64,000 nucleotides of DNA, taken from NCBI GenBank assembly GCA_965198235.1, contig OZ240248.1, positions 1,152,001 through 1,216,000 on the forward strand. The letters are read 5' to 3'. Source of the DNA: Candidatus Poribacteria bacterium (GTDB lineage Bacteria > Poribacteria > WGA-4E > WGA-3G). How positions within the stretch are numbered: position 1 is the stretch's first letter; each line of letters starts with the position of its first letter. A program made the translations under genes and the position numbers. Under the pieces are notes generated by a model, which was given only the letters and a program-made list of their open reading frames with translations, did no database searches and was not told where the DNA came from. Below, one piece after another: positions 8,943 through 52,500 of the stretch.

Positions 8943-9120
8943 CAGTCGGTAGTCAGCATGCTTCGCAGTGAGAACTATCAGTAGGGCACCTTGTGCCAGG
9001 CATGTTTGCGATAACCGCCACAAATACCTGATGGTTCCCGAAAGCCGATGGCTGATAGCCAATACGCATACACGGTTACCTTGAATGCAACAGCATCTCT
9101 TTGCTGATAGCCGAAAGCCG

Positions 9121-10056
9121 ATGGCTGATGGCCAATACGCCGACAGCCGAATTGAGGTAGAAAATCTTTCGCATTCATATCAGACACGACGCGCGCTTGA
9201 CAATGTCAGTTTTAGCGTCTCATGCGGCGAGATTTTCGGGCTTCTGGGACCGAACGGGAGTGGGAAAACAACCCTTTTTAAGATTCTGTCCACACTGATG
9301 CCGATAACGTCCGGCACTGTTCGTATCCTCGGATATGACTTGACCGCTGAGGTGAAGGCGGTTCGGGATCTCTTAGGTGTTGTTTTTCAACACCCAGGAC
9401 TGGATGGCAAGCTCACCGTCGTCGAAAATTTACGGCACCATGGGCACCTCTATGGACTTGCTGGCAAAACGCTGCGTCACCGAATTTCGGAACTCCTCGA
9501 ATGTTTTGGCATCACGGACAGGGCGACGGAACGTGTTGAACGCCTATCCGGCGGTTTACAAAGGCGGGTTGAAATCGCAAAAGCTTTGCTCCATTCTCCT
9601 CGCGTTCTACTCCTTGACGAACCAACGAGTGGGTTGGATGTAGTTGTACGCCGGCAACTCAATGACTATCTCGGTGCACTCGCGGACACAGAAAATATCC
9701 TCGTTCTGCTTACGACGCATCTGTTAGAGGATGCTGAGGCGTGCAACAGGGTAGGTATTCTGGATTCAGGCAAGTTGGTCGCTCTCGGAGTACCTGATGA
9801 ACTCAAGGCACAAGTCGGTGGTGATGTTATTATCATAGAAAGTGGAAATCGTGAAACACTTTCTGGGGCTATTGCTAAGAGATTCGGCGTTTCGCCGGTG
9901 TTGACTGGTAATCAGCTTCGTGTTGAATGTGAGCGGGGACATGAGTTCGTCCGGAACGTGGTTGCCGCGTTTCCAGATGAGATTCAATCGGTTCGATTTG
10001 GGAGACCGACACTGGAGGACGTATTCATAAAATTGACAGGCAATCCATTCGTGTAG
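9121..10056 (+). CDS. ABC transporter ATP-binding protein (ABC-2 type)
   Basis: Walker A GPNGSGKT, LSGG signature, LLDEPT; start uncertain because it lies in repeats. Confidence 0.9.
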   Translation: MADGQYADSRIEVENLSHSYQTRRALDNVSFSVSCGEIFGLLGPNGSGKTTLFKILSTLMPITSGTVRILGYDLTAEVKAVRDLLGVVFQHPGLDGKLTVVENLRHHGHLYGLAGKTLRHRISELLECFGITDRATERVERLSGGLQRRVEIAKALLHSPRVLLLDEPTSGLDVVVRRQLNDYLGALADTENILVLLTTHLLEDAEACNRVGILDSGKLVALGVPDELKAQVGGDVIIIESGNRETLSGAIAKRFGVSPVLTGNQLRVECERGHEFVRNVVAAFPDEIQSVRFGRPTLEDVFIKLTGNPFV

Positions 10057-10092
10057 AGGAAGGATAGGGAAAATTAAAAGAATCCAAAACTG

Positions 10093-10206
10093 CAAGCCCG
10101 TAACATTGTCCCGCAAGCCTCTATAGGCTTGCACTGGGAGGGCGGATCTACGGAGAGGTAGGTGTATGCTTAACCCACCTCAACGAACCGCAAGGAAAAT
10201 TAAAAA
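10093..10206 (+). repeat. Family A start-site element carrying a nested 26-nt palindrome
   Basis: AGCCCGTAAC...GGAGGGCGGATCTACGGAGAGG...GAACCGCAAGGAAAATTAAAAA; contains the ATG of the permease gene. Confidence 0.8.
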
Positions 10207-10978
10207 TCTGCTCCCGATTGCAACGATATGGTGGCGTGAAATCATCAGGTTTTATCGCCAGCGGAGTCGACTCTTCAGTGCTATCGCACAACCGTTAGTA
10301 TTTTGGTTACTCATCGGGAGCGGCTTGAGTGCCTCTTTTCGACCCTCTGGCACGGCGGATGGACCCAGTTATATCGAATACTTTTATCCCGGTATCGTTG
10401 TTTTAGTCTTGCTTTTTACGTCTATTTTTGCTACAATCTCTGTCGTCAATGACCGACGTGAAGGCTTTTTGCAAGGTGTACTCGTGGCTCCCCTGCCAAG
10501 GTGGCAGATTGTACTCGCACAAGCGTTAGGCGGCACTACGTTAGCACTCTTGCAAGGCGTGCTGATGCTGCTACTCGCACCGATAGTGAGTATTCGACTC
10601 GGCGCGGCATCACTTTTTCTCACATTTGGCGTGATGGCACTTTTAGCGTTCGGCTTGACAAATCTCGGACTGCTCATCGCATGGCGAATGGACTCAACGC
10701 AAGGGTTTCATGCGATTATGAATCTCCTGCTGATTCCGATATGGCTGCTCTCTGGCGCGTTTTTTCCGAGTACGGGCGTACCCAGTTGGTTAGAATGGAC
10801 AATGAAATTTAATCCGTTAACGTATGGGCTCGCCGCTTTTCGGCATAGCCTCTACCTTAACACAGGGGCAGCAGTTGGCGAGGGACCTCCGTGGACACTC
10901 TCGATGCTGATTACCGGTCTGTTTTGTGTTTTGACGTATGTAGGGGCAGCGCTCACCGCGTCTGCACAAGCAAATTAG
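10166..10978 (+). CDS. ABC-2 type permease
   Basis: Six TM helices, DRREGFLQGVLVAP, LSGAFFP, NPLTY. Confidence 0.9.
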   Translation: MLNPPQRTARKIKNLLPIATIWWREIIRFYRQRSRLFSAIAQPLVFWLLIGSGLSASFRPSGTADGPSYIEYFYPGIVVLVLLFTSIFATISVVNDRREGFLQGVLVAPLPRWQIVLAQALGGTTLALLQGVLMLLLAPIVSIRLGAASLFLTFGVMALLAFGLTNLGLLIAWRMDSTQGFHAIMNLLLIPIWLLSGAFFPSTGVPSWLEWTMKFNPLTYGLAAFRHSLYLNTGAAVGEGPPWTLSMLITGLFCVLTYVGAALTASAQAN

Positions 10979-11049
10979 ACTTGTTAAGAACAAAAATCTT
11001 ACGCGCTTTCACTTTTCAATAAGCGAGACGCGTTGTTAAGGAGGACTTG

Positions 11050-11715
11050 ATGCTTCAATGGCTTCCAGAGAACGTATCAACGTTCGGGCAAAGCGTTGAT
11101 AACCTCTTTTACGGTATTTACTATCTTACCCTTGTTGTGTTCATCCTTGTGATGGGAACCCTTATCGTTTTCCTGATTAAGTATCGCCATCAGGAAGGGA
11201 AGAGGGCACACTACATTGAGGGTAGCACAACAGTGGAAATTGTCTGGACCGCCGCGACAACGGTAATTGTCTTTGGGCTCGCGATGCTCAGTTACCCGCA
11301 GTGGAATAATATTAAGTCGCCCACACAATTTCCTGAAAATCCAGATGTTGTTGTCCAGGTCAGCGGGAAACAGTTTAACTGGGATATGACCTATCCCGGT
11401 CCCGATAACGAGTTCGGAACAGATGATGACCTGAAATTAGAAAATGAATTGCATGTGCCGATCAACGCGGTCGTGCATATCCGGTTAACCTCCGTGGATG
11501 TCATCCACAGTTTTTTTGTGCCACAGTTGCGACTCAAACAGGATAGCTTGCCCAACCGATTTATCAACGTCTGGTTTGAGGCAATAAAAGCAGGGCGTTA
11601 TGAAATTCCGTGCGCTGAACTGTGTGGATTTGGACACTCCGGAATGCTCGGGTACCTCAATGTGCATACGCAAGCGGACTACGATGCCTGGCTGCAAGAA
11701 AGATGGCCTCAGTAG
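11050..11715 (+). CDS. coxB: Cytochrome c oxidase subunit II
   Basis: DVIHSF and CAELCGFGHSGM CuA motif, two TM helices. Confidence 0.95.
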   Translation: MLQWLPENVSTFGQSVDNLFYGIYYLTLVVFILVMGTLIVFLIKYRHQEGKRAHYIEGSTTVEIVWTAATTVIVFGLAMLSYPQWNNIKSPTQFPENPDVVVQVSGKQFNWDMTYPGPDNEFGTDDDLKLENELHVPINAVVHIRLTSVDVIHSFFVPQLRLKQDSLPNRFINVWFEAIKAGRYEIPCAELCGFGHSGMLGYLNVHTQADYDAWLQERWPQ

Positions 11716-11735
11716 GCTGAAGGAGAAAAATAACG

Positions 11736-13559
11736 ATGCACGATAACGAACATGCGTCACATCATCACGAAGAAAGTTTTATTAGAAAATACATCTTTTC
11801 GCTCGACCACAAGACGATCGGCAAGCAGTTCCTCATCTACGGACTAATCATGTTTTTCCTCGGTGGTGGGCTCGCACTCCTTTTCAGATGGCAACTCGCC
11901 TACCCTGAAAAGCCACTACCTCTTATCGGTGCCTCGCAACAATACCTTGATGAGGGTGAAGTCGTCACCGGTGCTGACAAAATGTGGGAGAAGATTTACG
12001 AATCTGAGCAAGAGGAGTGGCTTGAGGTAAACATGCCCAGCGGGGTCGTTGAACCCGCATTTTACAACATGCTGTTTACGATGCATGCCACCATTATGGT
12101 GTTCTTCGTCGTGGTTCCGATCTTGGTGGGTGCTTTCGGAAATTTCCTGATCCCGTTGATGATCGGTACACGGGATATGGCATTCCCTCTCCTCAATATG
12201 ATCTCCTTTTGGCTCGCAGTCCTCGCCGCAATTATCATGACAGTCGGGTTCTTTGTACCCGGCGGACACGCTGCAGCAGGATGGACAGGCTACGCACCCC
12301 TCTCCGCCGATCCGCAGTGGACAGGTGTTGACTGGGGACAAAACCTCTGGGCGATTAGTCTGCTCATTCAAGGGTTCTCCTCGCTGGTCGGATCTATTAA
12401 CTACATCACCACGATTATCAATATGCGCGCACCGGGGATGACGTTCTTCCGGTTACCCTTGGTCGTCTGGTCGCTTTTTGTCGTCGCTATCCTGTTGCTA
12501 CTCGCTTTCCCCGTGCTGTCGTCTGCGCTCGCGCTTCTCATCTTTGATAGGCTTGCGGGAACGACGTTCTTCAGTGCAACAGCGGAAGGCGGCGGTGACC
12601 CGCTCTTGTGGCAGCATCTCTTCTGGTTCTTCGGACATCCAGAGGTCTATATCCTCATTTTGCCGGGCATGGGTATCGCTTCCGAGTTGATTTCTGTCTT
12701 TTCACGGAAACCGATCTTCGGATACCGCTCCATGGTCTACGCAATCATCGCCATCGCGTTTTTGGGATGGATCGTCTGGGGACACCACATGTTCCAAAGT
12801 GGTATGCAGCCCGGACTCGGCTCTATCTTCATGACGACAACCATGCTTATTGCGGTGCCTTCAGCCATTAAGACATTTAACTGGCTTGGGACGATGTTCC
12901 GGGGGTCAATCCGGTTCACAACGCCGATGCTCCACGGTATCGCTTTCGTCTCAATGTTTGTGATTGGCGGGTTGAGCGGCATCTACATGGCAAATACACC
13001 GGTTGACATCTTCATCCACGATACATACTACATTGTCGCGCATATTCACTACATTGTGTTCGGCGGCAGTCTGTTTGCTATTTTCGGCGGCATCGTCTTC
13101 TGGTTCCCGAAGATGTACGGACGCTATATGAACGATGTTCTCTCCAAAATTCACTTTTGGTTGACGTTCATCGCGTTCAACTGTACCTTCTTCCCGATGC
13201 ATATTCTCGGCGTGGGTGGACACATGCGGCGCATCTCCAACCCGATGCAGTATGAATTCCTACAGGGGTTTGACGGCATGAACATCTTTATCACGATGAG
13301 TGCGTTCACTCTTGGATTCGCGCAGTTGATACTGGTCTTTAACTTCTTCTGGAGCATGTACCGTGGGAAAGTTGCCGAACAGAATCCGTGGCAGGTAAAC
13401 ACCTTGGAGTGGGAGGCACCTACACCCGTGCCACACGGTAATTTCGATCAAATTCCGACTGTCTACCGTGGTCCCTACGAATATAGTGTTCCCGGTGAAG
13501 AGAATGATTGGACCCCGCAGGCACAACCTGAACACGCGCCCGCGACAGGCGGTGACTAA
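11736..13559 (+). CDS. coxA: Cytochrome c oxidase subunit I, A1 type
   Basis: DHKTIG, WFFGHPEVY, VWGHHMF, AHIHY. Confidence 0.97.
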   Translation: MHDNEHASHHHEESFIRKYIFSLDHKTIGKQFLIYGLIMFFLGGGLALLFRWQLAYPEKPLPLIGASQQYLDEGEVVTGADKMWEKIYESEQEEWLEVNMPSGVVEPAFYNMLFTMHATIMVFFVVVPILVGAFGNFLIPLMIGTRDMAFPLLNMISFWLAVLAAIIMTVGFFVPGGHAAAGWTGYAPLSADPQWTGVDWGQNLWAISLLIQGFSSLVGSINYITTIINMRAPGMTFFRLPLVVWSLFVVAILLLLAFPVLSSALALLIFDRLAGTTFFSATAEGGGDPLLWQHLFWFFGHPEVYILILPGMGIASELISVFSRKPIFGYRSMVYAIIAIAFLGWIVWGHHMFQSGMQPGLGSIFMTTTMLIAVPSAIKTFNWLGTMFRGSIRFTTPMLHGIAFVSMFVIGGLSGIYMANTPVDIFIHDTYYIVAHIHYIVFGGSLFAIFGGIVFWFPKMYGRYMNDVLSKIHFWLTFIAFNCTFFPMHILGVGGHMRRISNPMQYEFLQGFDGMNIFITMSAFTLGFAQLILVFNFFWSMYRGKVAEQNPWQVNTLEWEAPTPVPHGNFDQIPTVYRGPYEYSVPGEENDWTPQAQPEHAPATGGD

Positions 13560-13593
13560 CGGAGCGATGGATGGAAGGATGCGCCTTTCCTTT

Positions 13594-13673
13594 ATCATCT
13601 TGTAGGAGGGGTTTGTAACCCCGATGTCATCATCATCTTGTAGGAGGGGTTTGTAACCCCGATGTCATCATCT
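13594..13673 (+). repeat. Tandem 38-bp duplication of a GTAG-type REP hairpin
   Basis: ATCATCTTGTAGGAGGGGTTTGTAACCCCGATGTCATC occurs twice in tandem. Confidence 0.9.
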
Positions 13674-13715
13674 CCTCCTATCTTCCATTCTTTTTGTATT
13701 TCGTGGAAACTTGGC

Positions 13716-14714
13716 ATGAAGCAACACGTGAGTTATAACCCATGGCTACACAGAACGGCACGCCTCACCGCAGGCGCGACTTTCTTATTGATTGTCATTG
13801 GTGGAATTGTCACAAGTACCGAGTCCGGGTTGGCTGTTCCTGATTGGCCAACAACCTTTGGATACAATATGTTTCTCTATCCACTCTCGGAAATGGTAGG
13901 AGGCATCCTATACGAGCATAGTCATCGGCTCATGGGCTCTCTCGTTGGACTTTTGACAGTCGGTCTCTTTATTTTCCTTTTGGCGAGAGATTCCCGCAAA
14001 TGGCTGAAATGGCTTGGGTTCGCTGCTTTGGTCGCTGTTATTGTCCAAGGCGTTCTCGGTGGACTTCGGGTTACACAGATTAATCGCAACTTCGCGATAG
14101 TGCATGCGTGCCTCGCACAAGCGTTCTTTGCCCTGCTTTGTGGAATTGCTTGGTTCACCTCTCGCGATTGGCGGCAAGGCTTTTTTACAGCAAGTTTTGG
14201 CTTGCAAGCTACGCCAAAAAGTGAACCCGCAATCGCGGCAGCACAGAAACTACGGCGGTTAAGCCTGATTACGACATGCCTTATCTATGTGCAGCTCATC
14301 TTTGGCGCAATCCTGCGGCATACCGGAAGCAGACTTGACGCACATCTTCTCTTTGCCTTCCTTGTCGCGCTGCATATCTTTTTGTTGGTGAGACGTGTTC
14401 TTGGAACGAACCGTGACGCACAAAGAATTGGACAATCGATGCCTATGTTATTGTTGGGCTTGCTTGCTATTCAGTTGATGCTCGGCACTGGGGCGTTTTT
14501 CGCGAAGCTTACCGCCCTCGGAGAAACATTCGCAACCGCACTCACAGTCGCAATCACTACGGCGCATGTCGCAGTCGGTGCCTTCATGTTAGTGAGCAGT
14601 TTTGTGCTTACCCTGAAAATCTATCGGGTCACTGATGCATCGGTAGTTGTCGGTGCACCCGCAGGTGATGCCGGCACCTTCCCAGTAACGGGTGGGACCC
14701 GGGTTACAGAGTGA
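13716..14714 (+). CDS. ctaA: Heme A synthase (COX15/CtaA)
   Basis: SGLAVPDWP, EHSHR, QGVLGGLRV, conserved His residues. Confidence 0.9.
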   Translation: MKQHVSYNPWLHRTARLTAGATFLLIVIGGIVTSTESGLAVPDWPTTFGYNMFLYPLSEMVGGILYEHSHRLMGSLVGLLTVGLFIFLLARDSRKWLKWLGFAALVAVIVQGVLGGLRVTQINRNFAIVHACLAQAFFALLCGIAWFTSRDWRQGFFTASFGLQATPKSEPAIAAAQKLRRLSLITTCLIYVQLIFGAILRHTGSRLDAHLLFAFLVALHIFLLVRRVLGTNRDAQRIGQSMPMLLLGLLAIQLMLGTGAFFAKLTALGETFATALTVAITTAHVAVGAFMLVSSFVLTLKIYRVTDASVVVGAPAGDAGTFPVTGGTRVTE

Positions 14715-14860
14715 GACAAACATAATGCGTTCAACAACGATAGCGTTACCAGGTAATACAGAATCTGTAAGACATCTTTCGTAACCCAGACCCAGTTGAC
14801 TTAATCGGAAACCACCGTGAAACATAGTGGAACGGTGACCAGATTTAATAGTTTAAAAAG

Positions 14861-15787
14861 ATGCGTTCAACAACGATAACGTTACCAGACAATACAGACA
14901 CAGCGAATCCACCGTCGAAGCAGACGGTTTTCGCGCATCGCGCCGCTGATTTTGTCGAACTCGTCAAACCGAGGTTGGTGGTGATGATACTCATTACGAC
15001 CGCCGCCGGTTTCTATCTCGGCGCACAGCAGACCGTAGATTGGCTCAGATGCCTACATACAGTCTTGGGCGCAGGATTAACCGCTGCAGGTGTCTTAGGG
15101 CTCAACCAATACCTTGAGCGCGATGTAGACGCACAGATGAAACGGACGCAGGAGAGACCGCTCCCTGGGGGTAGAATGAATCCACTGACGGCACTTCTTG
15201 TCGGTGCTGCCCTCACAGGCAGTGGAATGCTTTACCTGACGTTTATCGTCAATATGCTGAGTGGTTTTGTCATTTCGCTGATAGTCGTGAGTTATCTCTT
15301 TCTCTATACACCGCTGAAGCGGAAAACCTCACTGTGTACGCTGATCGGTGCAGTGCCGGGTGCGCTCCCGCCTGTCGTCGGATGGGTCGCAGCACGAGGC
15401 GCGCTAACAGGCGAGGCGTGGGTGTTATTTACAATACTCTTTTTGTGGCAGATCCCACACTCTCTTGCAATAGCCTACATCTATCGCGAAGACTACGCAA
15501 ATGCAGGATTCCGTTTGTTGCCGGTCATTCATCCCGATGGGACAAGTACGTGTCGGCAAATAGTGGTTAATTGCGTCGCACTCCTCGGAATAGGCTTGTT
15601 ACCCACGTTGTACAACATTGCGGGTAGCGTCTATTTCTTCACAGCACTGCTGTCAGGCGTGGCGTTTCTGGCAGTCGGTATCTATTTAGCGCGTACACGC
15701 TCCGTGAGAGCCGCACGCTATCTGTTGTATGCATCGCTTCTCTATCTACCGTTGGTATTTGTCACGATGGCGTTGGATAAAATTTAG
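14861..15787 (+). CDS. ctaB: Protoheme IX farnesyltransferase (heme O synthase)
   Basis: LVKPR, ERDVDAQMKRTQERPLPGG, YTPLKRKT, WQIPH. Confidence 0.95.
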   Translation: MRSTTITLPDNTDTANPPSKQTVFAHRAADFVELVKPRLVVMILITTAAGFYLGAQQTVDWLRCLHTVLGAGLTAAGVLGLNQYLERDVDAQMKRTQERPLPGGRMNPLTALLVGAALTGSGMLYLTFIVNMLSGFVISLIVVSYLFLYTPLKRKTSLCTLIGAVPGALPPVVGWVAARGALTGEAWVLFTILFLWQIPHSLAIAYIYREDYANAGFRLLPVIHPDGTSTCRQIVVNCVALLGIGLLPTLYNIAGSVYFFTALLSGVAFLAVGIYLARTRSVRAARYLLYASLLYLPLVFVTMALDKI

Positions 15788-15805
15788 GTTAACGAGGAAG
15801 TAAAA

Positions 15806-15967
15806 ATGACGTTGGCTCAAACCTTATTCTCTTTCAACGGTCGGATTAATCGGGCAAAATACTGGACAATACATCTGCTGATATTAGCGGCGTTTTTTGA
15901 ATTAGGCTTTCGCAAAGGAACAGATGGGCCAAATCATTTTGGGGCAGACCCGTTGGAGGATTCATGA
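15806..15967 (+). CDS. 53-aa DUF805-like mini-protein, apparently internally deleted
   Basis: Own translation MTLAQTLFSFNGRINRAKYW...ELGFRKGTDGPNHFGADPLEDS; GAGGA RBS; ATGA overlap with the next gene. Confidence 0.65.
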   Translation: MTLAQTLFSFNGRINRAKYWTIHLLILAAFFELGFRKGTDGPNHFGADPLEDS

Positions 15968-16206
15968 ACTCGCCAGAGCATCGCAAGCGAAATCGTCACC
16001 TTGGACTCATTTTATGTCTACTGTTTGCAGGATTGTTTGTCATCGTAACGACTGCAATTATTACGGGCAGCAAAGCACCTCAATCTGTTGAAAGTGTCGT
16101 CAAGGGTCTGGTTGTCCCTGTTTTGGGTGTCATCGGGTTGCTACTGATTATCGCGGCGGTCGTTGAGGTTGTTCTTCGGATTTTAAAAAATAGAGCGCGT
16201 GAATGA
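15964..16206 (+). CDS. Small two-TM hypothetical protein of the cox cluster
   Basis: GGAGG RBS, ATGA overlaps at both ends. Confidence 0.7.
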   Translation: MNSPEHRKRNRHLGLILCLLFAGLFVIVTTAIITGSKAPQSVESVVKGLVVPVLGVIGLLLIIAAVVEVVLRILKNRARE

Positions 16207-16784
16207 TGGCACAAATACACGAGCGTCCGCCCTTGAGCAACGCACGATTGGGGATATTAGTCCTGCTCGGTGCAGAGACGATGCTGTTTTCGGGCCTTAT
16301 CGGTACATTTCTCGTCTTTCGAGTGGGGAACGTCACATGGCCCCCGCCGTCGCATATCGGGATTGAACTGCCACGTGCGGTAACCGGCATCAATACTGCT
16401 CTGCTCTTATTGAGCGGTTACACGATGTTTCAGGCACGCCGCGCAATTCAGAAAAACCGGGTGAAGCAGCTCCGCACTTGGCTACTTCTCACCGGAGGGC
16501 TTGGCTTACTCTTCCTCGGCGTACAGGGAAGCGAGTGGGTACAACTGATTCGCAACGGGCTCACGCTCCAATCTGGGGTATATGGCGGTATCTTTTATGT
16601 ACTCATCGGATGCCATGCCGTTCACGTGTTCAGTGCTGTTATCTGGTTGTTTATAGTTTTTGGAATGGCGATGGCAGGACGTTTCTCTGCCGAACGTTAC
16701 GTCGGCGTAGATACCTGTACTATCTACTGGATTTTTGTCGTCGCACTTTGGCCAATTCTGTATGTGTTGGTATATCTCTTGTAG
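16203..16784 (+). CDS. Cytochrome c oxidase subunit III family, copy 1
   Basis: AETMLF, NTALLLLS, GCHAVHV, YWIFV. Confidence 0.9.
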   Translation: MMAQIHERPPLSNARLGILVLLGAETMLFSGLIGTFLVFRVGNVTWPPPSHIGIELPRAVTGINTALLLLSGYTMFQARRAIQKNRVKQLRTWLLLTGGLGLLFLGVQGSEWVQLIRNGLTLQSGVYGGIFYVLIGCHAVHVFSAVIWLFIVFGMAMAGRFSAERYVGVDTCTIYWIFVVALWPILYVLVYLL

Positions 16785-16807
16785 ACATCGTGGAGGAAAT
16801 CATAAAA

Positions 16808-17044
16808 ATGCAAGGGTTTTTTGTATGGGCTTCCATCTTGATACTCGTCATGCTTATAGTCCCGATGTCCCTTGAGGCATGTCCAGGCTGTAAAGAACTT
16901 GATGATCCTATCAATAAGGGTTTTAATTGGAGTATCCTTTTTCTGATGGCGATGCCGTTTACGGTTTTCGGTCTCATCGGTGGCACAGTTTATTTACATT
17001 ACCGACGTGCAAACAGGAAACCGACGGATCAAGAAACCATCTAA
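16808..17044 (+). CDS. Small CxxC membrane protein (78 aa)
   Basis: GGAGG RBS, signal-like helix, ACPGC, second TM helix. Confidence 0.7.
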   Translation: MQGFFVWASILILVMLIVPMSLEACPGCKELDDPINKGFNWSILFLMAMPFTVFGLIGGTVYLHYRRANRKPTDQETI

Positions 17045-17148
17045 TCAAGATAGTTGTTAGTTATCAGGACACACTTAAAACTGGATTCTGATAATTCCAA
17101 ATCCTTCTTTAACTGATAACCGATAGCTAATATAAGGAGTTAAATGTA

Positions 17149-17799
17149 GTGGAACACGCTACCACTTTAGATCATACTGAAGATATATATGAACCTTCGC
17201 TTACGCCGGATAGCCTTGGCAAACTCGGCATGTGGATTTTCCTCGCTGGAGACACCATGTCGTTTGGCGCACTGCTGGCGACTTATGCCGCGATCCGTGT
17301 GGGTGCAGGCGCAGTCGGATGGGCCCCGCCAAGCGAGGTTCTCGGCATTAACCTAACCGCATTTATGACATTCCTGCTGATATGCAGTAGTGTCACTATG
17401 GTGAAAGCGTTGGAGTCGATTCAGAACGGCAATGTCTCACGCATGTGCATGTTCCTTGGGTTGACGATCGGGGGAGGAGTCATCTTCCTTGGGCTACAGG
17501 CTTATGAATGGTATCATCTAATCCATCACGGATTGACGCTTACTGGTATCCCTGACCACGGGTTGTCAGGTGCAGCGATTAGCGGCTCGAACCTTTTTGG
17601 TCCCACTTTCTACGCCATCACAGGTTTCCACGGAATGCACGTGACCGGGGGTGTCATTTATCTCTTGGTTATCTTGATACACGGCTTACGCGGCAGATAT
17701 ACAGCTGAGTTTAACCATGAGGTAGAGATCGTCGGGCTCTATTGGCACTTCGTCGATCTTATTTGGATTATGGTCTTCACCTTCATCTATCTAATATAG
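17149..17799 (+). CDS. Cytochrome c oxidase subunit III family, copy 2
   Basis: KLGMWIFL, TGFHGMHV, GLYWHFVDLIW. Confidence 0.92.
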   Translation: MEHATTLDHTEDIYEPSLTPDSLGKLGMWIFLAGDTMSFGALLATYAAIRVGAGAVGWAPPSEVLGINLTAFMTFLLICSSVTMVKALESIQNGNVSRMCMFLGLTIGGGVIFLGLQAYEWYHLIHHGLTLTGIPDHGLSGAAISGSNLFGPTFYAITGFHGMHVTGGVIYLLVILIHGLRGRYTAEFNHEVEIVGLYWHFVDLIWIMVFTFIYLI

Positions 17800-17811
17800 G
17801 AGGACAGGAAA

Positions 17812-18147
17812 ATGGCACAGGACGGACACAAAGAGCATCCGAAATACATGAATATTTTCTGGTGGCTCCTTGCACTCACCATTATTGAGATTGCTGTAGC
17901 AATCCCTGATTACGTTGCTATACTCAAAGGCATACTACTCATCGGACTCGCATGTTCTAAAGCACTCTTAGTTGCTAATTATTTCATGCATCTGAAGTTT
18001 GAAAAGAGGACGTTGGCGATTATCGTGGTAACGCCTTTCTTTATCTGCGTTCTACTCGTTTTCGCGTTGATGCCCGACCTCACATCAGATGCACGGCACG
18101 GGGAAATAGAGAAACCGGCGGAAGTTGTGGATACGTCATCTCACTAA
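17812..18147 (+). CDS. Cytochrome c oxidase subunit IV family
   Basis: KALLVANYFMHLKFE motif, three TM helices. Confidence 0.9.
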   Translation: MAQDGHKEHPKYMNIFWWLLALTIIEIAVAIPDYVAILKGILLIGLACSKALLVANYFMHLKFEKRTLAIIVVTPFFICVLLVFALMPDLTSDARHGEIEKPAEVVDTSSH

Positions 18148-18155
18148 CTACTGGT

Positions 18156-18598
18156 TGGTGCTGGATGTGGAAACACCATAGGTATCAGTTTAGGAACGAT
18201 CTTCATCGTAGTGCTTTATCCAGTTTCAAATTGAAGGTAAACCTGGTTCGTAGTAGCGCAATTCATTGCGCATTCGGGACGTGCGATAAATCGCACGACT
18301 ACGAATTTACCCTAAAATTCAAAATGGATAGAACAGTAGGTTGGGTTGAACGGACTGGAGCGAAACGTTCGCATCTCAAAAAACGGTGTTTGAACTATAC
18401 ACCTACGATTGCAGAGATGCCGAGTGAAACCCAACACGCTACTAAAGACGTTGGACACACAGAGAGCCTAAAATCCGCGAAATCTGATAAATCCGCGAGA
18501 ATCCGCGATTCAGACAATACGGACATAACAACACTTCAAGAAGAACACGTTCATCGGCTTCTTAAATTTGACGCTTATGGTGCTGGGTATGGAAACAC
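18156..18598. repeat. Stack of nested miniature repeats flanked by a 21-nt direct repeat
   Basis: Inverted REP pair 18246-18305, GTAGGTTGGGTT...AAACCCAAC REP, AAATCCGCG repeats; flanks TGGTGCTGG(A/G)T(G/A)TGGAAACAC. Confidence 0.75.
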
Positions 18599-19227
18599 AA
18601 ACTGCCAATACCAATAAAGTTAAACGGCGACTTGACAAAAGCACCCTGATCTGGGTAGTGCTGGGTGTTATTATTATCGGCATCGCGGGGATTAACCTAT
18701 GGTCGGTATTTGATACCAAACCGGAGATGCCAGTCTCTAAAAGTACCGCTGTCGGCGTGCCGGACTTTAGCCTGACGACGCAGCAGGGAGAGCCGCTAAC
18801 ATTGTCCGACATGAAGGGCAAAATTTGGGTCGCAGACTTTATCTTCACCAATTGCCCAACCATTTGTCCGGCAATGACACAGGAGATGGCACGTCTTCAA
18901 TCCGAATTTGTTGCGGATCCGGTCTATTTCGTCTCCTTCTCCGTGGACCCGGAACGAGATACATCAAAGGTCCTTTCGCGCTACGCAACGGCTTATGGTG
19001 CTGACGATAGACGTTGGCACTTTCTTACTGGGGACAAGGCGCATATCTATCAGTTAGCCGAAGACGGGTTCAGTTTAGCCGCGGGACACAACGGCACCGA
19101 AATACTTCATAGCACGCGGTTCGTTCTCATCACGCCGGATGGGAACATCTATGGCTACTACGATAGTCGAAGCAAACCGGCGCTGCTGCGTCTACGGCGG
19201 GATGTCAAGGCACTCCTCGAAAAATGA
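18589..19227 (+). CDS. SCO family copper chaperone
   Basis: FIFTNCPTICP, SVDPERD, ILHS. Confidence 0.92.
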   Translation: METQTANTNKVKRRLDKSTLIWVVLGVIIIGIAGINLWSVFDTKPEMPVSKSTAVGVPDFSLTTQQGEPLTLSDMKGKIWVADFIFTNCPTICPAMTQEMARLQSEFVADPVYFVSFSVDPERDTSKVLSRYATAYGADDRRWHFLTGDKAHIYQLAEDGFSLAAGHNGTEILHSTRFVLITPDGNIYGYYDSRSKPALLRLRRDVKALLEK

Positions 19228-19493
19228 AAGATGTGAACCTCTTAATCTCCCTCGCGGCTTTTGTGATTCATTTCACGTTCGGATTTTTCCGTGGCGGGTT
19301 TAAGAGATTCAGCCGTCCGTGGAGTAGATGTCTCTACATTCCGATCGTTATTAACATCGTTGTGCGGCGTTTTGTTCTCCACTGGGACTGGCAAACCGCG
19401 ATGGTTTACCTATGGCCCGCAACGTTGATCGCCCATGTCCTCGGTGGTTTTCTGGGGGCGCGTTACAGAAAAGATGAACAGGATGAGCTGTAG
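19224..19493 (+). CDS. Small membrane hypothetical protein
   Basis: ATGA overlap with SCO gene, three hydrophobic segments. Confidence 0.65.
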   Translation: MKDVNLLISLAAFVIHFTFGFFRGGFKRFSRPWSRCLYIPIVINIVVRRFVLHWDWQTAMVYLWPATLIAHVLGGFLGARYRKDEQDEL

Positions 19494-19532
19494 AGATATG
19501 GGCTGGCTCCCCTAACCCGAAAGACCGAAACC

Positions 19533-21526: not shown

Positions 21527-21606
21527 TATTCTCTCCATCTTAAAGCGTGGAGATTCTTTTGCTTCGTATCTTATCGTAGTGGACAAAAGTTACAGAAGTT
21601 TATAGA

Positions 21607-43905: not shown

Positions 43906-44069
43906 TTTTTTAACTATTTAATCTGATCACTGCTCCATTACATTCCGCAGTGGTTTTTGGTTAATTCTAACCCGCTCCAGGTGTTCAAAGAGCTCTTGAT
44001 TTCACCAGAAACCGTTGTGAAACGTAGTGAAACAACGCCCAGGAGCCCATAGTTAAAAAAGTTAAAAAA
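43905..44069. mobile_element. Complete family B MITE-like element filling the intergenic space
   Basis: Left arm TTTTTAACTAT...TGCTCCATTACATTCCGCAGTGGTTT; right arm AAACCGTTGTGAAACGTAGTGAAACAACG...ATAGTTAAAAAA ending just before ATG 44070. Confidence 0.75.
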
Positions 44070-45074
44070 ATGGATAATTTTATTCTCATCGCAAACCCCA
44101 TTTCCGGTAAAGGCAACGCGAAAAACGTTGCTGAACAGGCTTATGCTGCCCTTACCGAATCTGGAGCTCAGGGACAATTGATGTTCACTTCGGCATCCGG
44201 CGATGCCAAACGTTTCGCGCAGGAAGCCATCTCTGATGGAATTCGATCCATGATTGCTTGCGGTGGCGATGGGACGCTCCACGAAGTTGTTAACGGTATC
44301 GAGACGGCTCCAGATGTAACCTTAGGTGTTCTTCCGTGTGGTCGCGGCAACGATTTTGCAGCGGCAATCGGTGTGCCGCTGAAACCTGAAGCCGCAATCG
44401 CAACCCTCTTATCTGGCACCCCTATCCGTGTAGATTTAGGATGTTGCTATCAGAATAGCAGTCAGCAGTCAGTTGTTAATCCAAATGATGTAGCCCGTAA
44501 TGAAATGGAGGGCGGATCTACGGAAAGGTGCTTCAATGTCCAAACCCCACTGACCGAACCGCAAGGAAAAATTAAAAAATATTTCATCACCATTGCCACC
44601 TGCGGTTACGATACGGAAGTGAGTCGCCGTGCGGCGAAAGGAACACCGCTGTTTGCAGGCACTGCCTCCTACGCTTACGCCGCGGTGGAGACACTTTTCT
44701 ACTACGAACCGCCGTTTGTGCGTCTTGAGGGCGACTTCGGTGTCCACGAGGGACCGCTCCTTCTCGCTGCGACAGGCATCACAAATCGATATGGCGGTGG
44801 ATTTCAGATTGTACCGAACGCTCGCGTCGACGATGGGCTTTTCGATGTCTGTATTATCCGACCGGTGTCCTCTCTAACGGTGTTACGGCTCATGGTGACA
44901 CTCTTCTGGGGTGGACATGTTTCGCATCCTGCCGTATCCATGCACCAGACCCGCACTTTAACAATTGAGACCGACACACCCATGCTGTTGTATGCCGATG
45001 GCGAGCCGATGTGCGAAACCCCTGCCACAATTGAGATAATTAAAGAGGGACTCGCTGTAATGGCACCTCGTTGA
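44070..45074 (+). CDS. Diacylglycerol/lipid kinase family protein (YegS/DgkB-like) with in-frame repeat insertion
   Basis: NPISG, GGDGT, GRGNDFA, YGGG, DDGLFD, DGE; extra ~40 aa at 44450-44579. Confidence 0.9.
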   Translation: MDNFILIANPISGKGNAKNVAEQAYAALTESGAQGQLMFTSASGDAKRFAQEAISDGIRSMIACGGDGTLHEVVNGIETAPDVTLGVLPCGRGNDFAAAIGVPLKPEAAIATLLSGTPIRVDLGCCYQNSSQQSVVNPNDVARNEMEGGSTERCFNVQTPLTEPQGKIKKYFITIATCGYDTEVSRRAAKGTPLFAGTASYAYAAVETLFYYEPPFVRLEGDFGVHEGPLLLAATGITNRYGGGFQIVPNARVDDGLFDVCIIRPVSSLTVLRLMVTLFWGGHVSHPAVSMHQTRTLTIETDTPMLLYADGEPMCETPATIEIIKEGLAVMAPR

Positions 45075-45279
45075 TGCTCCCTACTCCCTTGCAAACGCTC
45101 CGGCGACTGGGTTTGTTGATGGCAATCGGCAATCGGTGGTCAGCAGTCAGTAGTTTGCTGTGAGAATCAATCCGCCTCTCCCTGCTGGCGAGGTGTTTTG
45201 CTTGGGGTTTTTGCTTGGGGTTTTTGATAGGGTGTTTCTGTGGATTTCTGCGGATTTCCTCTAGTAACCTCGCCTCTTT

Positions 45280-47064: not shown

Positions 47065-47570
47065 TATGGCGTTTCTCCTGTTGCCTCGTAGTGAGAGTTT
47101 GCCTCTATCCTAACATACGAACTGATGAGAGTCAAGTTAATCGTTCCTCTTACGGGTAGGATCGATTTCCTTCCCACTGATAAATTTTCATAGTAACCTT
47201 CACAGAAGATTTCTGAAAAAACCGCGCAGAATCCAGTCAGGGCATGGGTTTATAGCATCCTTTGGGATCCATCACTGTCCGAGTTTTGCTATGAAAACTG
47301 TGAAATTAGCATTGTTTAGAATCATGTATAGGAGCCGACTGCTGACCGCTGATGGCTGATCGCTGACTGTTATTCTTCTGGCGACCGCAAACGAAATTCT
47401 ACCTAAACTTGTTTTTTTCTTGCTTTTGTGTTACGAATTGTGCTAAACTATTGCAAATTATCACAGCAGAACCCAATTTAAGCAGGACCTGAATTAATAT
47501 TCGCAAAATTCTGGGAAATGTGGTAAACTCTATCCTAAAGTCATCCGTTGTTGTCTGAGGAGACGTTCAA

Positions 47571-49391
47571 ATGTACGATAAGAAGAATCGTAAAATTGCT
47601 GGTCCAGGTCCTGATGGGAACGACCTGTTTATTGAAGATGACGAGGAACTTGAAGAGGAACTCACTCCCGAAGAGGAGGCAATGAGTTCTGGCTATTCGT
47701 TACAGTTAATTCACCACATTATTGCCGACACCCCGGTAGATGACCGGCGCCGTCGCTGGCTCATGGAACTCCGTCGCGCTATTCTCAACGATGAAGGCGA
47801 ATTTCAAGAGAGGGTCCGCTCGATTCAGCAGGAGGCACTCCGTATCCACGCAGAAATGGAGGAGCAGATTGAGAAGCTCACCGCACCCGCAAATCGAATC
47901 GGAACCCTACTCGGATTGCCCAAGGAGGACATTGCCCGCGTTATCGTCGGCGGCTCCGAATACTACGCGAATATTGATACCGAACTGAAAGCATCCGACC
48001 TTAAAAAGGGGTTCAGCGTCCTGTTGAACGACGCTTTTGTCGTTGTCGGTGAACTCGGATACAACGATGCAGGTCCTATTGCAAAAATAGCCGATGTCAT
48101 GCCGGATGGACGGCTCCGTATCGGTCAAGAACCGAATGCTCAAACTGTCATCCTTGAACGCTCCACAGACCTCGTAGATGTGAAACTGAAACCCGGTGAT
48201 GAAGTTCGGATCGACTCCAACTTCCGTGTCGCCGTTGAACATATCGCCGCGAAAGAGACAGACGCTTACGCGCTTGAAGCGGTGCCGAATATACCGTGGT
48301 CCAAGGTGGGTGGGCTTGACGATACCATCCAACGCATTAAAGACACGATCGAGCTCCCGATCCTACATCCCAAACTCTTTGAACGCTTCCAGTATAGTGC
48401 GCCGAAAGGTTTCCTTCTCCACGGTCCTCCGGGATGTGGAAAAACACTCATTGGCAAAGCGACCGCTTACAACTTAACCCAACGTCTCCGAAGGGAAAGC
48501 GGCGAGGATGTTGAAGGCTGTTTCCTACACATCAAGGGACCCGAGATCCTCAACATGTGGCTCGGTGAATCTGAACGGAAAGTGCGAGAGATTTTTCAGA
48601 TTGCTCGTGAGAAAAAAGAAGATGGCAAGTTGGCGTTTGTCTTTATCGATGAGGCGGAGTCAATATTGGGGACACGACGTGCACTCAGATCCCACAGTAT
48701 CTCGAACACACTTGTCCCGATGTTTTGTGCAGAGATGGACGGTATTGAATCTCTGCAGGATGTCGTCATTATCTTGGCGACAAACCGTCCCGATCTAATT
48801 GACCCTGCCGTTTTACGTCCAGGGCGAATTGATAGGAAAATTAAAGTAACACGTCCAGATGCAAAGGCTGCAAAGGATATCTTCCGTATCTACCTCACCC
48901 CTGAGATACCCATTGCTTCACTCCTTGATCAGGAGAATGATACCGGAACAGGAGAAGGTGAAACACCCCCCGAAGTCATCCCGGCGGAGAAAGCCGTTGC
49001 AGATCTAATCGCACAGGCCGTTGATGAGATGTTCCGTGAAGACGAAGACAACCGATTCCTTGAAGTTTCTCTCAGGAGTGGGAGACGCGATATTCTCTAT
49101 AAAGGACATCTGTGCAGCGGTGCAATTATTGAGTCGATTGTGCAACGGGCGAAGGAGTCCGCACTCAAACGTGCGATTCAGAACCCAGAGAAGGAAAGTG
49201 GTATCACGCGCGCCGACCTGTTAGATGCACTCGCCGCAGAGTATAGCGAAAGCGAAATCTTCCCGCCAACCGAGGCGACTGAAGACTGGCTCAAGCTCCT
49301 TGATTACGATCCAACGAATGTTGTCAAAGTTACGCCTATCAAATCTGAGAAACAGGAGCGACGCAAAGCCTCCGGTTCGCGCGTCATTTAG
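47571..49391 (+). CDS. arc: Proteasome-associated AAA ATPase (ARC/Mpa-like)
   Basis: Coiled coil and OB region, GPPGCGKT, IKGPEILNMWLGESER, FIDE, RPGRID; first gene of the proteasome operon. Confidence 0.9.
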   Translation: MYDKKNRKIAGPGPDGNDLFIEDDEELEEELTPEEEAMSSGYSLQLIHHIIADTPVDDRRRRWLMELRRAILNDEGEFQERVRSIQQEALRIHAEMEEQIEKLTAPANRIGTLLGLPKEDIARVIVGGSEYYANIDTELKASDLKKGFSVLLNDAFVVVGELGYNDAGPIAKIADVMPDGRLRIGQEPNAQTVILERSTDLVDVKLKPGDEVRIDSNFRVAVEHIAAKETDAYALEAVPNIPWSKVGGLDDTIQRIKDTIELPILHPKLFERFQYSAPKGFLLHGPPGCGKTLIGKATAYNLTQRLRRESGEDVEGCFLHIKGPEILNMWLGESERKVREIFQIAREKKEDGKLAFVFIDEAESILGTRRALRSHSISNTLVPMFCAEMDGIESLQDVVIILATNRPDLIDPAVLRPGRIDRKIKVTRPDAKAAKDIFRIYLTPEIPIASLLDQENDTGTGEGETPPEVIPAEKAVADLIAQAVDEMFREDEDNRFLEVSLRSGRRDILYKGHLCSGAIIESIVQRAKESALKRAIQNPEKESGITRADLLDALAAEYSESEIFPPTEATEDWLKLLDYDPTNVVKVTPIKSEKQERRKASGSRVI

Positions 49392-49463
49392 GCTTTTAAG
49401 TTAGTAATTCTGGAGTTAATAACTTAAAAAATGGAACGATCCTTAGAGGCACATAATTAAAAA

Positions 49464-50978
49464 ATGGGAAGACTTTTTGGAATCGAAACTGAATACGGAA
49501 TAACACTCGAAAATGAAGCGCACATTGATGCCGTCAAGCAGTCAATTGAGCTGGTAAAAAGTTACCGACAAGAAGATTTTCGACCTGTGTGGGACTACCG
49601 CGGCGAGGACCCGTTTCGAGACGAACGCGGCTTTCGGGCGAGCGCGCTTTCCAATCATCCCGATGAGAAGGAAGAGGAAAAGCGCGACCAAAAACGCAAT
49701 ATTAAAGAACGACTCTCTTTTGCTGAAATCAAAAGCGATCACATCCTCGTCAACGGCGCACGGTTCTACAACGATCACGCACATCCAGAGTATTCAACAC
49801 CTGAATGCAGCAGTCTCTTTGACCTTGTCGCACACGATAAAGCCGGCGAACGCATCCTTCAACGGTGTGCCGAAACACGCAGCCAGAAACTCGGAAAACG
49901 CGTGCTTTTATACAAGAATAATACCGATTTCCATGGGCATAGTTACGGTTGCCACGATAACTACCTGATGGCACGCGAAGTACCGTTTGAAACCCTCAAG
50001 CAAGGTATCATGCCGTTCTTTATCACACGCCAGATCTTCGCAGGTGCCGGAAAAATCGGCATTGAAACTGAAGCCGGACTCGCAACGCCAGGACACTACC
50101 AGTTATCTCAACGATCCGATTTCTTTCACGTCGAGGCGAGTGTGGATACCATGCACAATCGTCCTATCGTCAACACGCGAGATGAACCGCACGCTGATGC
50201 ATCTAAATATCGTAGGTTGCACGGCATCGCCGGGGATGCAAATATGTCCGAATACGCCACCGCACTCAAAGTCGGCACGACAGCACTCGTGATTGCCTTG
50301 ATTGAACAGCGGAGGATTCCAGAAAGTTTAGTGCTCGTCAACCCGATTGATACCATCAAAACTGTATCGCATGACCAGACATATCGTTGGATAGTAATGA
50401 CGGCAGAAGGGAAAACGATGTCCGCTATTGACCATCAGCGTGAGTATCTTGCACTCGCACAGAAGCATCTCGGTGAAGCTGTGGGGCTTGAAACCGACTG
50501 GGTGCTCACCGAGTGGGAGGATACCCTCAACGCGCTTGAGACGGACCCAATGTCGCTCACTGATCGGCTTGATTGGGTCGCGAAGAAATGGTTGCTTGAA
50601 ACGTTTGCTGAGGAAGAGGGAGTCGCGTGGGATGACCCGTGGCTCCAAAGTTTGGATTTAGAATATCACAACATCGATCTTGATGAAGGGCTATACTATG
50701 GGATTCCGATGCGGCGTATCGTCACGGACGAACAGATTGATGCTGCGCTCCATAATCCGCCTGCCGACACGCGGGCATACTTCCGGGGGCGCGCTGTAGA
50801 TCGATTCAGTAACTCTATAAAGGCTATCCAGTGGGATAGTATTACCTTTACTGTAAACGGGCGCACCCGCGAAATCAATCTAAATGCCCTCGCAGATGCG
50901 GAGATCGCGCGTCAATATAACGAGGCACTCGATCAATCGCCGACTGTTGAGACGCTCATTGAAAAATTGCCTCTATAA
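49464..50978 (+). CDS. dop: Dop-like depupylase/deamidase (PafA2)
   Basis: GIETEYG, NGARFYNDHAHPEYSTPEC, YKNNTD, GCHDNY, RRLHGI. Confidence 0.85.
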   Translation: MGRLFGIETEYGITLENEAHIDAVKQSIELVKSYRQEDFRPVWDYRGEDPFRDERGFRASALSNHPDEKEEEKRDQKRNIKERLSFAEIKSDHILVNGARFYNDHAHPEYSTPECSSLFDLVAHDKAGERILQRCAETRSQKLGKRVLLYKNNTDFHGHSYGCHDNYLMAREVPFETLKQGIMPFFITRQIFAGAGKIGIETEAGLATPGHYQLSQRSDFFHVEASVDTMHNRPIVNTRDEPHADASKYRRLHGIAGDANMSEYATALKVGTTALVIALIEQRRIPESLVLVNPIDTIKTVSHDQTYRWIVMTAEGKTMSAIDHQREYLALAQKHLGEAVGLETDWVLTEWEDTLNALETDPMSLTDRLDWVAKKWLLETFAEEEGVAWDDPWLQSLDLEYHNIDLDEGLYYGIPMRRIVTDEQIDAALHNPPADTRAYFRGRAVDRFSNSIKAIQWDSITFTVNGRTREINLNALADAEIARQYNEALDQSPTVETLIEKLPL

Positions 50979-50994
50979 AAGAAGGAGATATAGA

Positions 50995-51192
50995 ATGACA
51001 GCCAAGATGATTGCTCAGCTTGAACGGAAGCAAAGAGACACCAAACCCATTGGACCCGGTGATGGCGATGACGATAACGAGGGACCCAAGCGACAGAAAG
51101 TCAGTCGGCCCGATACGCAAGAACTGCTCAAACGGATGCGGCGTGTTGACAAAGATCAGTCCAGACGTTACCGCCAAAGAACGGGGGAGTGA
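50995..51192 (+). CDS. ubact: Ubiquitin-like protein UBact (Pup analog), 65 aa
   Basis: AAGGAG RBS, charged disordered sequence ending YRQRTGE (R[ST]G[EQ] signature), located between dop and prcB. Confidence 0.9.
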   Translation: MTAKMIAQLERKQRDTKPIGPGDGDDDNEGPKRQKVSRPDTQELLKRMRRVDKDQSRRYRQRTGE

Positions 51193-52052
51193 TGAACGAT
51201 AAAGGCGGCTTCCCTAAAGAGTACGGAAAATTTGCGCTACAGGGAGTCATGAACCATAAAGGGGACTTCCTAAACCTTTTAAAACACGCAAACTATCCCT
51301 TGAAAATAGATTTGCCATCGGAAGTTACACAGCGCGGTACTGATATTGAAATAGCACACAGTACGACTGTCGTCGTTGTTCGTTACCGGGACGGAGTCAT
51401 GATCGCGGGTGACCGGCGTGCTACCGCTGGCACTTCTGTCATCTATGATCGGGCGGAGAAAGTTTTGCAGATTGATAAGCATTCTGTACTCGCTATTTCA
51501 GGTTCACCCGCAATCGCTTATGAGATCGCCAGAATATTGGAGCACTCGTTTCAATACTTTCGCCGCAGCCAGCTCCAAGAGTTGAGTCTTGAAGGCAAAC
51601 TCCGAATGCTATCACGGCTCATCCGGGAGAATCTGCCCATGGCACTCCAAGGCATCGGAGGTGTTATTCCGATTTTTGCCCTCTACGATTTGAATGCCCC
51701 TGATGACGAGAATGGTGGAAAAATTTTCTTCTATGATGCACTCGGTGCGCATTTTGAAAACGTAAATTTTGCCACGACCGGTTCCGGCTCCATCTGGATT
51801 CGCGGTGTGTTACGCTATATCTCTCGATTCGGCGATGCGCCTTTGCAAGAAATGGATGAGCGGCAGGCGACTATCACTATCTTACGCCTCTTGGACACCG
51901 CAAGCGAGTACGATGCCGCGACAAGCGGTTACAACGCCAGGGCACAAATTTTTCCAAATGTCAAGATTGTGACACGCACCGGCGTTGAAGATATTTCCGA
52001 TGATGAATTGGAGGCATGTTACGCTGAAGCACAACCGGACGGAGAGGAATAG
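51189..52052 (+). CDS. prcB: 20S proteasome beta subunit (alternative start 51249)
   Basis: HSTTVV processing site, AGDRRAT, TGSGS. Confidence 0.9.
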   Translation: MMNDKGGFPKEYGKFALQGVMNHKGDFLNLLKHANYPLKIDLPSEVTQRGTDIEIAHSTTVVVVRYRDGVMIAGDRRATAGTSVIYDRAEKVLQIDKHSVLAISGSPAIAYEIARILEHSFQYFRRSQLQELSLEGKLRMLSRLIRENLPMALQGIGGVIPIFALYDLNAPDDENGGKIFFYDALGAHFENVNFATTGSGSIWIRGVLRYISRFGDAPLQEMDERQATITILRLLDTASEYDAATSGYNARAQIFPNVKIVTRTGVEDISDDELEACYAEAQPDGEE

Positions 52053-52175
52053 CCGTCAGCATATTGGCCGTCAGCAGTCGGCGGATGGTGGTTGGCAGTC
52101 GGTAGCCGGCGGATGGCAGTCGGTTCAGAAGTTTTCGCCTAACAAGGGGTTTCTCTTAAGATAACCTCAAAACCT

Positions 52176-52500
52176 GTAGCCTGTAATGAAATGGAAGGCG
52201 GATTTAAGAAAGGCAGCCGATAGTTCAAACCCGCGACGTTTGACCGCAAGGAATAATTAAAGAATGCGAGATGAACCGTATCACGTAGCTCGTAATGAAA
52301 TGGAGAGCGGATTTCAGAACGGGATGTCAAAGTTCAAACCCGCGACGTTTAACCGCAAGGAATAATTAAAGAATGCGAGATGAACCGTATCACGTAGCTC
52401 GTAATGAAATGGAGAGCGGATTTCAGAACGGGATGTCAAAGTTCAAACCCGCGACGTTTAACCGCAAGGAATAATTAAAAAATGCGAGATGAACCGTATC
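52176..52500 (+). repeat. Three tandem 109-bp units: family A element plus the first 19 nt of prcA
   Basis: Units start with GTAGC at 52176, 52285, 52394; ATGCGAGATGAACCGTATC at 52264, 52373, 52482. Confidence 0.92.

Follow-up and report, generated by a model that had tools for sequence, protein, structure and literature searches.

The stretch of DNA analysed here, called the window below, comprises 64,000 nucleotides (nt) from a Candidatus Poribacteria bacterium (positions 1152001-1216000 of contig C1 in the genome labelled G000). This genome is a metagenome-assembled genome (MAG) of 5.17 Mb in 2 contigs, with 48% G+C, and is 96.3% complete. The window contains genes for an ABC ATPase, for CtaA (COX15 family), CtaB (UbiA family) and SCO1/SenC (SCO below), as well as an operon encoding UBact, a Pup-ligase, an AAA-ATPase and the beta and alpha subunits of the proteasome (prcB and prcA). 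These family assignments agree with the gene names of an initial annotation, which reported that five genes (those for the ABC ATPase, ctaB, SCO, prcB and prcA) carry a direct duplication of their own start region. It attributed the duplications to a single insertion process, target-primed or based on template switching, with long, variable target-site duplications unlike those of DDE transposases. Here the five cases are compared with congener assemblies, which are Candidatus Poribacteria MAGs gathered with the prcA protein (labels in the style G001-G019); the host context is that of a sponge symbiont.

All five pairs are present where they had been placed. The prcB copies match at 25 of 29 positions, and the pair at the ABC ATPase gene is not assignable as a copy of that gene's own start. 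Three families of small elements are distinguished: A-type, represented by the 98-nt insert at ctaB; B-type, represented by the 88-nt element at prcA; and C-type, represented by the SCO insert, a miniature inverted-repeat transposable element (MITE). RBS stands for ribosome-binding site. The features are as follows.

9029-9145, forward strand: two copies of a heptad-like dispersed repeat, 73 nt apart; the second copy holds the likely ABC ATPase start (ATG at 9121)
14725-14762, forward strand: upstream copy of the initial 38 nt of ctaB, now redundant, separated from the ctaA stop by 10 nt; a reading frame of 19 codons begins here
14763-14860, forward strand: 98-nt A-type dispersed unit, hairpin-bearing, between the ctaB copies; 3' end ...CCAGATTTAATAGTTTAAAAAG
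14861-14898, forward strand: downstream copy, at which ctaB (UbiA family) truly starts, from the direct-repeat search and the empty-site comparison
18158-18176, forward strand: upstream copy of the 19-bp target-site duplication at SCO, the old RBS-to-start region; single copy in empty sites
18177-18579, forward strand: 403-nt family-C MITE with inverted ends; the left begins CATAGGTATCAGTTT and the right closes with AATTTGACGCTTATG
18580-18598, forward strand: second copy of the 19-bp duplication, downstream of the MITE, with the functional start of SCO1/SenC (ATG at 18589)
51185-51270, forward strand: in-frame duplication in prcB of the RBS, start and first codons (51185-51213 versus 51242-51270, 25/29 nt), both copies in frame
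52176-52502, forward strand: array of three 109-nt units, in each of which an 88-nt B-type element and two more bases precede the initial 19 nt of prcA; the last 19-mer (52482-52500) is the genuine start of the gene

Recognisable elements had been noted between the copies at ctaB, SCO and prcA, and BLAST against the genome confirmed them. The intergenic pieces gave 152 rows at prcA, 120 at ctaB, 100 at SCO and 28 at the ABC ATPase gene, and the prcB segment matched only itself (1 row). Rfam searches of the whole window at gathering thresholds and of 13500-19000 at E<=1 returned only tRNA, 23S rRNA and a chance miRNA match, so that no known RNA family accounts for the elements.

Insertions at SCO and ctaB

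Insertion with a long target-site duplication is real at SCO and ctaB. The initial annotation had proposed inspection of orthologous empty sites, and these sites establish both cases as true insertions, with duplications of 19 bp at SCO and 38 nt at ctaB. As had been claimed, the downstream copy keeps the gene intact at both loci. Duplications that span a gene boundary probably persist because one intact copy of the gene remains.

At SCO, the direct-repeat search paired 18156-18176 with 18578-18598 (19 of 21 nt identical, 90%). The empty site is found in 8 of 18 congeners and consists of a stop codon, about 20 nt and the ATG, with the 19-mer present once. The MITE contains further nested small repeats and has 15-nt inverted ends, whose left and right 15-mers match the ends of an insertion sequence (IS) with at most 3 mismatches each. 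This IS measures 1469 bp (G000:C1:2745151-2746619) and encodes a 447-aa protein that is matched by DDE_Tnp_1 (1e-24) and by NCBIfam transpos_IS4_1 (200 bits; cut-off 115). The transposase has 597 relatives at E<=1e-20, many of them on contigs of about 1.47 kb.

Twelve pairs of family-C ends lie 120-900 nt apart in G000. In six of them, direct repeats start exactly 20-21 nt upstream of the left end; the remaining six show no in-register repeat, and several of these are weak motif matches. A second family-C locus, C1:4433917, has a 20-bp duplication and is empty in G018, G014, G006 and G007, and G016 and G004 carry diverged single-copy versions of the site. One copy of the IS in G014 is flanked by a clean 19-bp direct repeat, eight copies are present in G002, and none was found in G018 and G006. 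Each of the eight lies in a palindrome with GTGC at its start and GCAC at its end that resembles repetitive extragenic palindromic (REP) sequences. The IS and family C share a target preference for sites that start with GTGC and end with GCAC, often within such a REP-like palindrome.

These comparisons show that the SCO insert is a MITE of an IS4-family DDE insertion sequence, with a duplication that is long but nearly fixed at 19-20 bp. The description of the process as unlike DDE transposases is therefore wrong at SCO, where the element shares its ends with an IS encoding an IS4-family DDE transposase, and the length of the family-C duplication is not variable. A non-autonomous IS4-family derivative transposed into the RBS-to-start region; the transposase makes cuts staggered by 19-20 bp, and repair duplicated 19 bp including the start codon.

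Three observations concern this family and its locus. Some of the eight identical IS copies of G002 adjoin other family-C ends with one 19-20-nt palindrome between them, which suggests repeated insertion into a duplicated target. A CRISPR-like array (clustered regularly interspaced short palindromic repeats; G000:C1:2733880-2738067), in which repeats of about 37 nt recur with a period of about 75 nt, is found 7 kb away from the single IS4-family IS copy of G000. Finally, an open reading frame (ORF) of 150 aa at 18165-18617 starts at the upstream SCO pseudo-start, reads through the MITE and has no Pfam match; it is probably an annotation trap. Upstream pseudo-starts and read-through ORFs of this kind are artefacts of such insertion events and call for caution in annotation.

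At ctaB, 14725-14762 and 14861-14898 are identical at 35 of 38 positions (92%). The upstream copy keeps the 10-nt spacing from the ctaA stop that the real start has in empty sites. Such sites were found in 2 of 9 congeners (G011 and G015), which have the ctaA stop, 10 nt and the ctaB ATG without an element. In the other 7, the junction is occupied by different elements that all run up to the same ATG, and a second ctaB start is absent from every one of them; in G002 and G008 the 3' end of ctaA is duplicated together with an element. The inserted unit has 84 BLAST matches in G000, the best paralog being 88% identical, and its hairpin stem has seemingly compensating changes among copies, as judged by eye. 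The comparison shows that ctaB gained a complete A unit together with a 38-nt duplication that starts exactly at the ATG. Either transposition with a very long stagger or an illegitimate recombinational join could account for the event.

A second A-unit event was found at C1:3844724, where an A unit of 110 nt, located at a gene's 3' end, is surrounded by flanks identical at 35 of 35 positions. The site is empty in G014, and the insert has no paralog above 85% identity in G000. C1:4113157, with an 18-nt duplication, is a third candidate. Long duplication is nevertheless not general for A units, because an adjacent flank copy accompanies only 1 of 103 A-type copies (versus 1 in a permuted control) and because other congener insertions at the same junctions show duplications of about 4-5 nt or replaced terminal codons. 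Most units of the ctaB type have no duplicated flank. Four 80-kb syntenic segments of relatives were also scanned for long-flank events and yielded mostly coding and element-internal repeats, too few for a length distribution.

Other A-type copies illustrate the range of joints. A full inverted doublet at 43906-44069 lies between two genes that overlap or abut in the four closest relatives (G018, G004, G014 and G006); the upstream stop codon is changed, the ATG is kept and at most about 4 nt are duplicated. At the SCO junction of G016, G017 and G006, a full A-type doublet stands directly after the upstream stop, in place of about 60 nt to which the first codons of SCO belonged, and its left joint is identical in distant species. 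Two candidates for a mobilising partner were rejected: IS630-like (DDE_3) copies lack A-type ends, and inverted A ends 0.6-5 kb apart, considered as a composite element, merely flank ordinary genes.

Upstream of ctaA, 13594-13669 is a perfect tandem repeat (38 nt x2) of a hairpin unit that is absent from this junction in the four closest relatives. It does not count as a sixth case: the unit is a member of a dispersed family (73 BLAST rows for its 141-nt segment), and the conserved start of ctaA is found further downstream, at about 13716.

Repeats at prcA, prcB and the ABC ATPase gene

The 19-nt start of prcA occurs three times (at 52264, 52373 and 52482), and Tandem Repeats Finder reports a 109-nt x3.0 array at 52176-52500. 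The elements of the three units, B1 to B3, are not equally related: B1 and B2 differ at 13 of 88 positions, and B2 and B3 at 1 of 88. At the same locus, the element of G018 is 93% identical to unit 1, and that of G006 is 98.8% identical to units 2 and 3; the flanking coding DNA is 89-95% identical. No other copy of the element exceeds 88% identity in G006 or 86% in G000. The 19-nt repeat is absent from all 19 congeners, each of which carries some element ending at the same ATG. From these sequence comparisons we infer an allelic mosaic that was later amplified. Two upstream-element alleles would have been joined at about base +19 to +21 of the gene, and recombination between the resulting 19-nt repeats would have amplified the unit to three copies. 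Read as a tandem array built from two different alleles, prcA does not belong to one insertion process.

The prcB copies start 57 nt apart, and the pair is not listed by the direct-repeat search. In 15 of 19 congeners the N-terminal motif is present in two copies separated by about 19-23 codons, most clearly in the more distant congeners; the duplication is missing in G014, G012, G007 and G016. No element lies between the copies, the segment having no BLAST match in G000 other than itself. The prcB case is thereby shown to be an ancient in-frame tandem duplication that affected the start of the propeptide; it is now normal coding DNA and not the product of an insertion.

At the ABC ATPase gene, 9029-9072 and 9102-9145 (44 nt) are 84% identical. 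The unit is a dispersed repeat with 25-41-nt matches at more than 20 other loci; at many loci, members of the family immediately follow a stop codon and precede a start. At this junction the downstream copy alone is shared by G014, and the junction of G006 is compact. Logan contigs from three public runs of two studies bridge 8800-9160 or 8800-9174 with 0 differences; of the five pairs, this one alone is shown to be bridged. The locus is best described as adjacent copies of a dispersed low-complexity repeat, an ambiguous case that is not classed as a duplication of the gene's own start. Runs of heptad-like repeats (CAGTCGG / CAGCCGA type) also stand directly after stops at 8943-8960, 52053-52125 and 57991-58024, frequently with a matching inverted run ahead of the following gene, so that long hairpins form.

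Origin of the duplications

The frequency of such duplications was assessed across G000. Local direct repeats are abundant, with 1413 pairs of at least 18 nt at a spacing of 20-1000 nt versus 62 at a control spacing of 5 kb; one CRISPR array supplies 637 of the 1413. A crude codon-usage caller gave 4149 genes, and the genome-wide counts are therefore approximate. The first 60 nt of each gene were compared with the upstream 600 nt (match score of at least 14), with a region 5 kb away as control, a comparison of the kind that the initial annotation had proposed. Matches stood above background (29 of 4107 genes, about 0.7%, versus 3 of 4107 in the control), and 4 of the 29 fall inside the window. 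Gene 3' ends also matched their downstream 600 nt in excess (18 of 4107 versus 7 in the control), so that the phenomenon is not specific to starts. The excess of gene-edge duplications is real, rare and not limited to starts.

Taken together, the start duplications are probably a mixed set of by-products of unstable, repeat-filled intergenic DNA, and no single new mechanism needs to be invoked. The proposal of one non-DDE process with long target-site duplications meets a coding duplication at prcB, a two-allele array at prcA, a dispersed repeat at the ABC ATPase gene and a DDE family at SCO. The claimed new integration mechanism is thereby replaced by tested and mostly ordinary causes.

Several points weigh against this mixed origin. 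A unique flank, an element and the same flank again make up the arrangement common to three or more independent insertions (38, 35 and 19-20 nt), and about 10 further candidates with 18-40 nt surround other small elements genome-wide. The 3' end of the A unit adjoins the downstream copy in all three A-type cases, which looks element-directed and not random. One common mechanism may underlie the cases outside family C. The allelic-mosaic reading of prcA rests on comparisons of 86-88 nt, the concentration in the window of 4 of about 30 genome-wide 5' matches is explained only by chance and by the choice of the window, and the genome-wide counts depend on crude gene calls.

One alternative derives ctaB, prcA and C1:3844724 from recombination between diverged alleles in hypervariable intergenic DNA, a homologous crossover within the conserved gene being combined with an illegitimate join, as in homology-facilitated illegitimate recombination. 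A conserved gene edge would then end up on both sides of the imported element. The succession at prcA of a G018-type and a G006-type element agrees with such an exchange, as does the fact that the sole near-identical copy in G006 lies at the orthologous locus, the next best reaching 88%. The same junctions are occupied in congeners by differing elements, which all stop at one and the same ATG, and G000 contains no close paralog of the inserts. We nevertheless regard this explanation as unlikely: the inserts at ctaB and C1:3844724 are whole units with natural 5' and 3' boundaries, which a random DNA end would not yield, and no searched congener has a near-identical element at the ctaB site.

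A single dedicated process, target-primed or based on template switching, would combine a specific nick at the 3' junction of the element with a second, variable nick and leave duplications of 18-40 nt. It would account for the retention of the A-unit 3' end against the downstream copy at ctaB (38 nt), C1:3844724 (35 nt) and C1:4113157 (18 nt). The duplications at ctaB and prcA both begin exactly at the ATG, and the insert at C1:3844724 lacks a paralog above 85% although its flanks are identical. Moreover, 3' ends of elements lie at starts far above chance: a start codon is found at offsets -1 to +2 of the 3' end in 24 of 104 A-type copies (23%) and 84 of 174 B-type copies (48%), compared with 246 of 2000 random positions having a start at any of 18 offsets. 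As regards a retroelement signature, the A-type 3' end is intact in the three cases just named, but the ctaB insert is full-length, not truncated. The reverse transcriptase model RVT_1, moreover, had 0 matches in G000 while positive controls were detected, a result that makes target-primed reverse transcription less likely. In family C the duplication is of nearly fixed length and the partner is a DDE element, adjacent flank duplication of A-type copies (1 of 103) equals its permuted control, the 43906-44069 doublet and congener insertions show duplications of about 4-5 nt or deletions, and prcB and the ABC ATPase pair are not insertions. A single process of this kind is thus distinctly unlikely.

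Assembly artefacts such as stitched strain haplotypes could be suspected in a 2-contig MAG whose prcA array mixes two allele types and whose 38-nt tandem repeat at 13594-13669 is 100% identical, but they are very improbable, since the copies at ctaB, SCO, prcB and the ABC ATPase gene differ by 8-16%, unlike assembly errors, the prcB duplication recurs in 15 of 19 other assemblies, and three public runs yield contigs that span the ABC pair with no differences.

Searches for other enzymes in G000 gave 6 matches to Y1_Tnp, 6 to DDE_3 and 16 to DDE_Tnp_1. Ku, sought in connection with the capture of filler DNA by non-homologous end joining, had 0 matches. The best match to an IS1634-family transposase reached 25 bits against a cut-off of 100, and the IS1182 family was likewise below its cut-off. 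Three of the six Y1_Tnp genes look, by eye, like IS200/IS605 with a tnpB-like downstream ORF. Three RAYT-like Y1 genes (G000:C1:606918-607262, 1898775-1899119 and 3853757-3854101) are flanked by their own REP family and not by A, B or C units. Mobilisation of these units by RAYT was accordingly rejected, the REP at the RAYT-like genes being different.

Known mobile elements and start codons

The autonomous partner of family C resembles the IS4 family, in particular the IS231 and ISH8 subgroups with their 5'-CAT ends: it encodes a DDE transposase in a single ORF, measures about 1.47 kb and has 5'-CAT inverted ends, which short non-autonomous copies share. It differs in its target preference (GTGC...GCAC, often a REP-like palindrome) and in the length of the duplication. 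Table 1 of a 2008 review of the IS4 family lists 7-13 bp, about one helical turn, for every subgroup (PMC2266710), whereas 19-20 bp, about two helical turns, are found in 6 copies of G000 and in the IS copy of G014. According to the same review, IS1549 and IS1634, DDE elements related to IS4, generate long, variable direct repeats of 8-514 bp (PMC2266710). These elements provide a precedent for the 35-38-nt cases described here, long, variable duplications by DDE elements being already on record there. Family C is nevertheless unlike the IS1634 family: no such transposase exceeds the cut-off in G000, and the duplication is nearly fixed. An IS4-family element with MITEs that duplicate 19-20 bp, twice the family norm, at a palindromic target offers a handle on the stagger of the DDE transpososome.

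A plain tandem duplication gives head-to-tail copies, as seen in the prcA array (109 nt x3), in the 38-nt x2 repeat before ctaA and in prcB; 22-nt duplications of an element end in G018, G006 and G014 are of the same nature. It cannot give the structures at ctaB and SCO, because neither has an element copy upstream of the first repeat.

Bacterial MITEs and REP/REPIN elements located within operons include Correia, ERIC and REPIN-RAYT. The A and B units resemble these in measuring about 90-110 nt, forming hairpins, occurring in hundreds of intergenic copies and often standing as inverted doublets. They differ in that the RAYT-like genes are flanked by a different REP, that A and B 3' ends lie at starts in 23% and 48% of copies, and that two A insertions have 35-38-nt duplications. 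These two insertions of units of about 100 nt, supported by empty sites, deserve follow-up. A literature search on Poribacteria and MITEs, judged by its listing, returned nothing on this topic.

The position of the A and B units relative to genes raises the question of their role. Since the elements often end exactly at the start codon, they may act as translation-start regions. B ends carry an AAGG motif, similar to a Shine-Dalgarno sequence, about 12-15 nt before the ATG. A role as carriers of sigma-70 promoters gained no support: scans of 14600-14950 and 52040-52560 found 0 promoter-like sites and no consensus. It is possible, if doubtful, that A and B units are mobile gene-start cassettes, with a precise 3' joint often at the ATG, a second cut 18-40 nt away and an enzyme not yet recognised, alongside an IS4-family transposase that has shifted to a stagger of two helical turns (19-20 bp) and homes to REP-like palindromes. 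If this were true, cassettes could enter tight, essential operons harmlessly. In Poribacteria, the spacers of conserved operons for cytochrome oxidase assembly and the UBact-proteasome system have been replaced repeatedly by small elements that end at a start codon. In the window, B-type and A-type 3' ends at starts are exemplified by 52353-52372 and 14839-14859, respectively.

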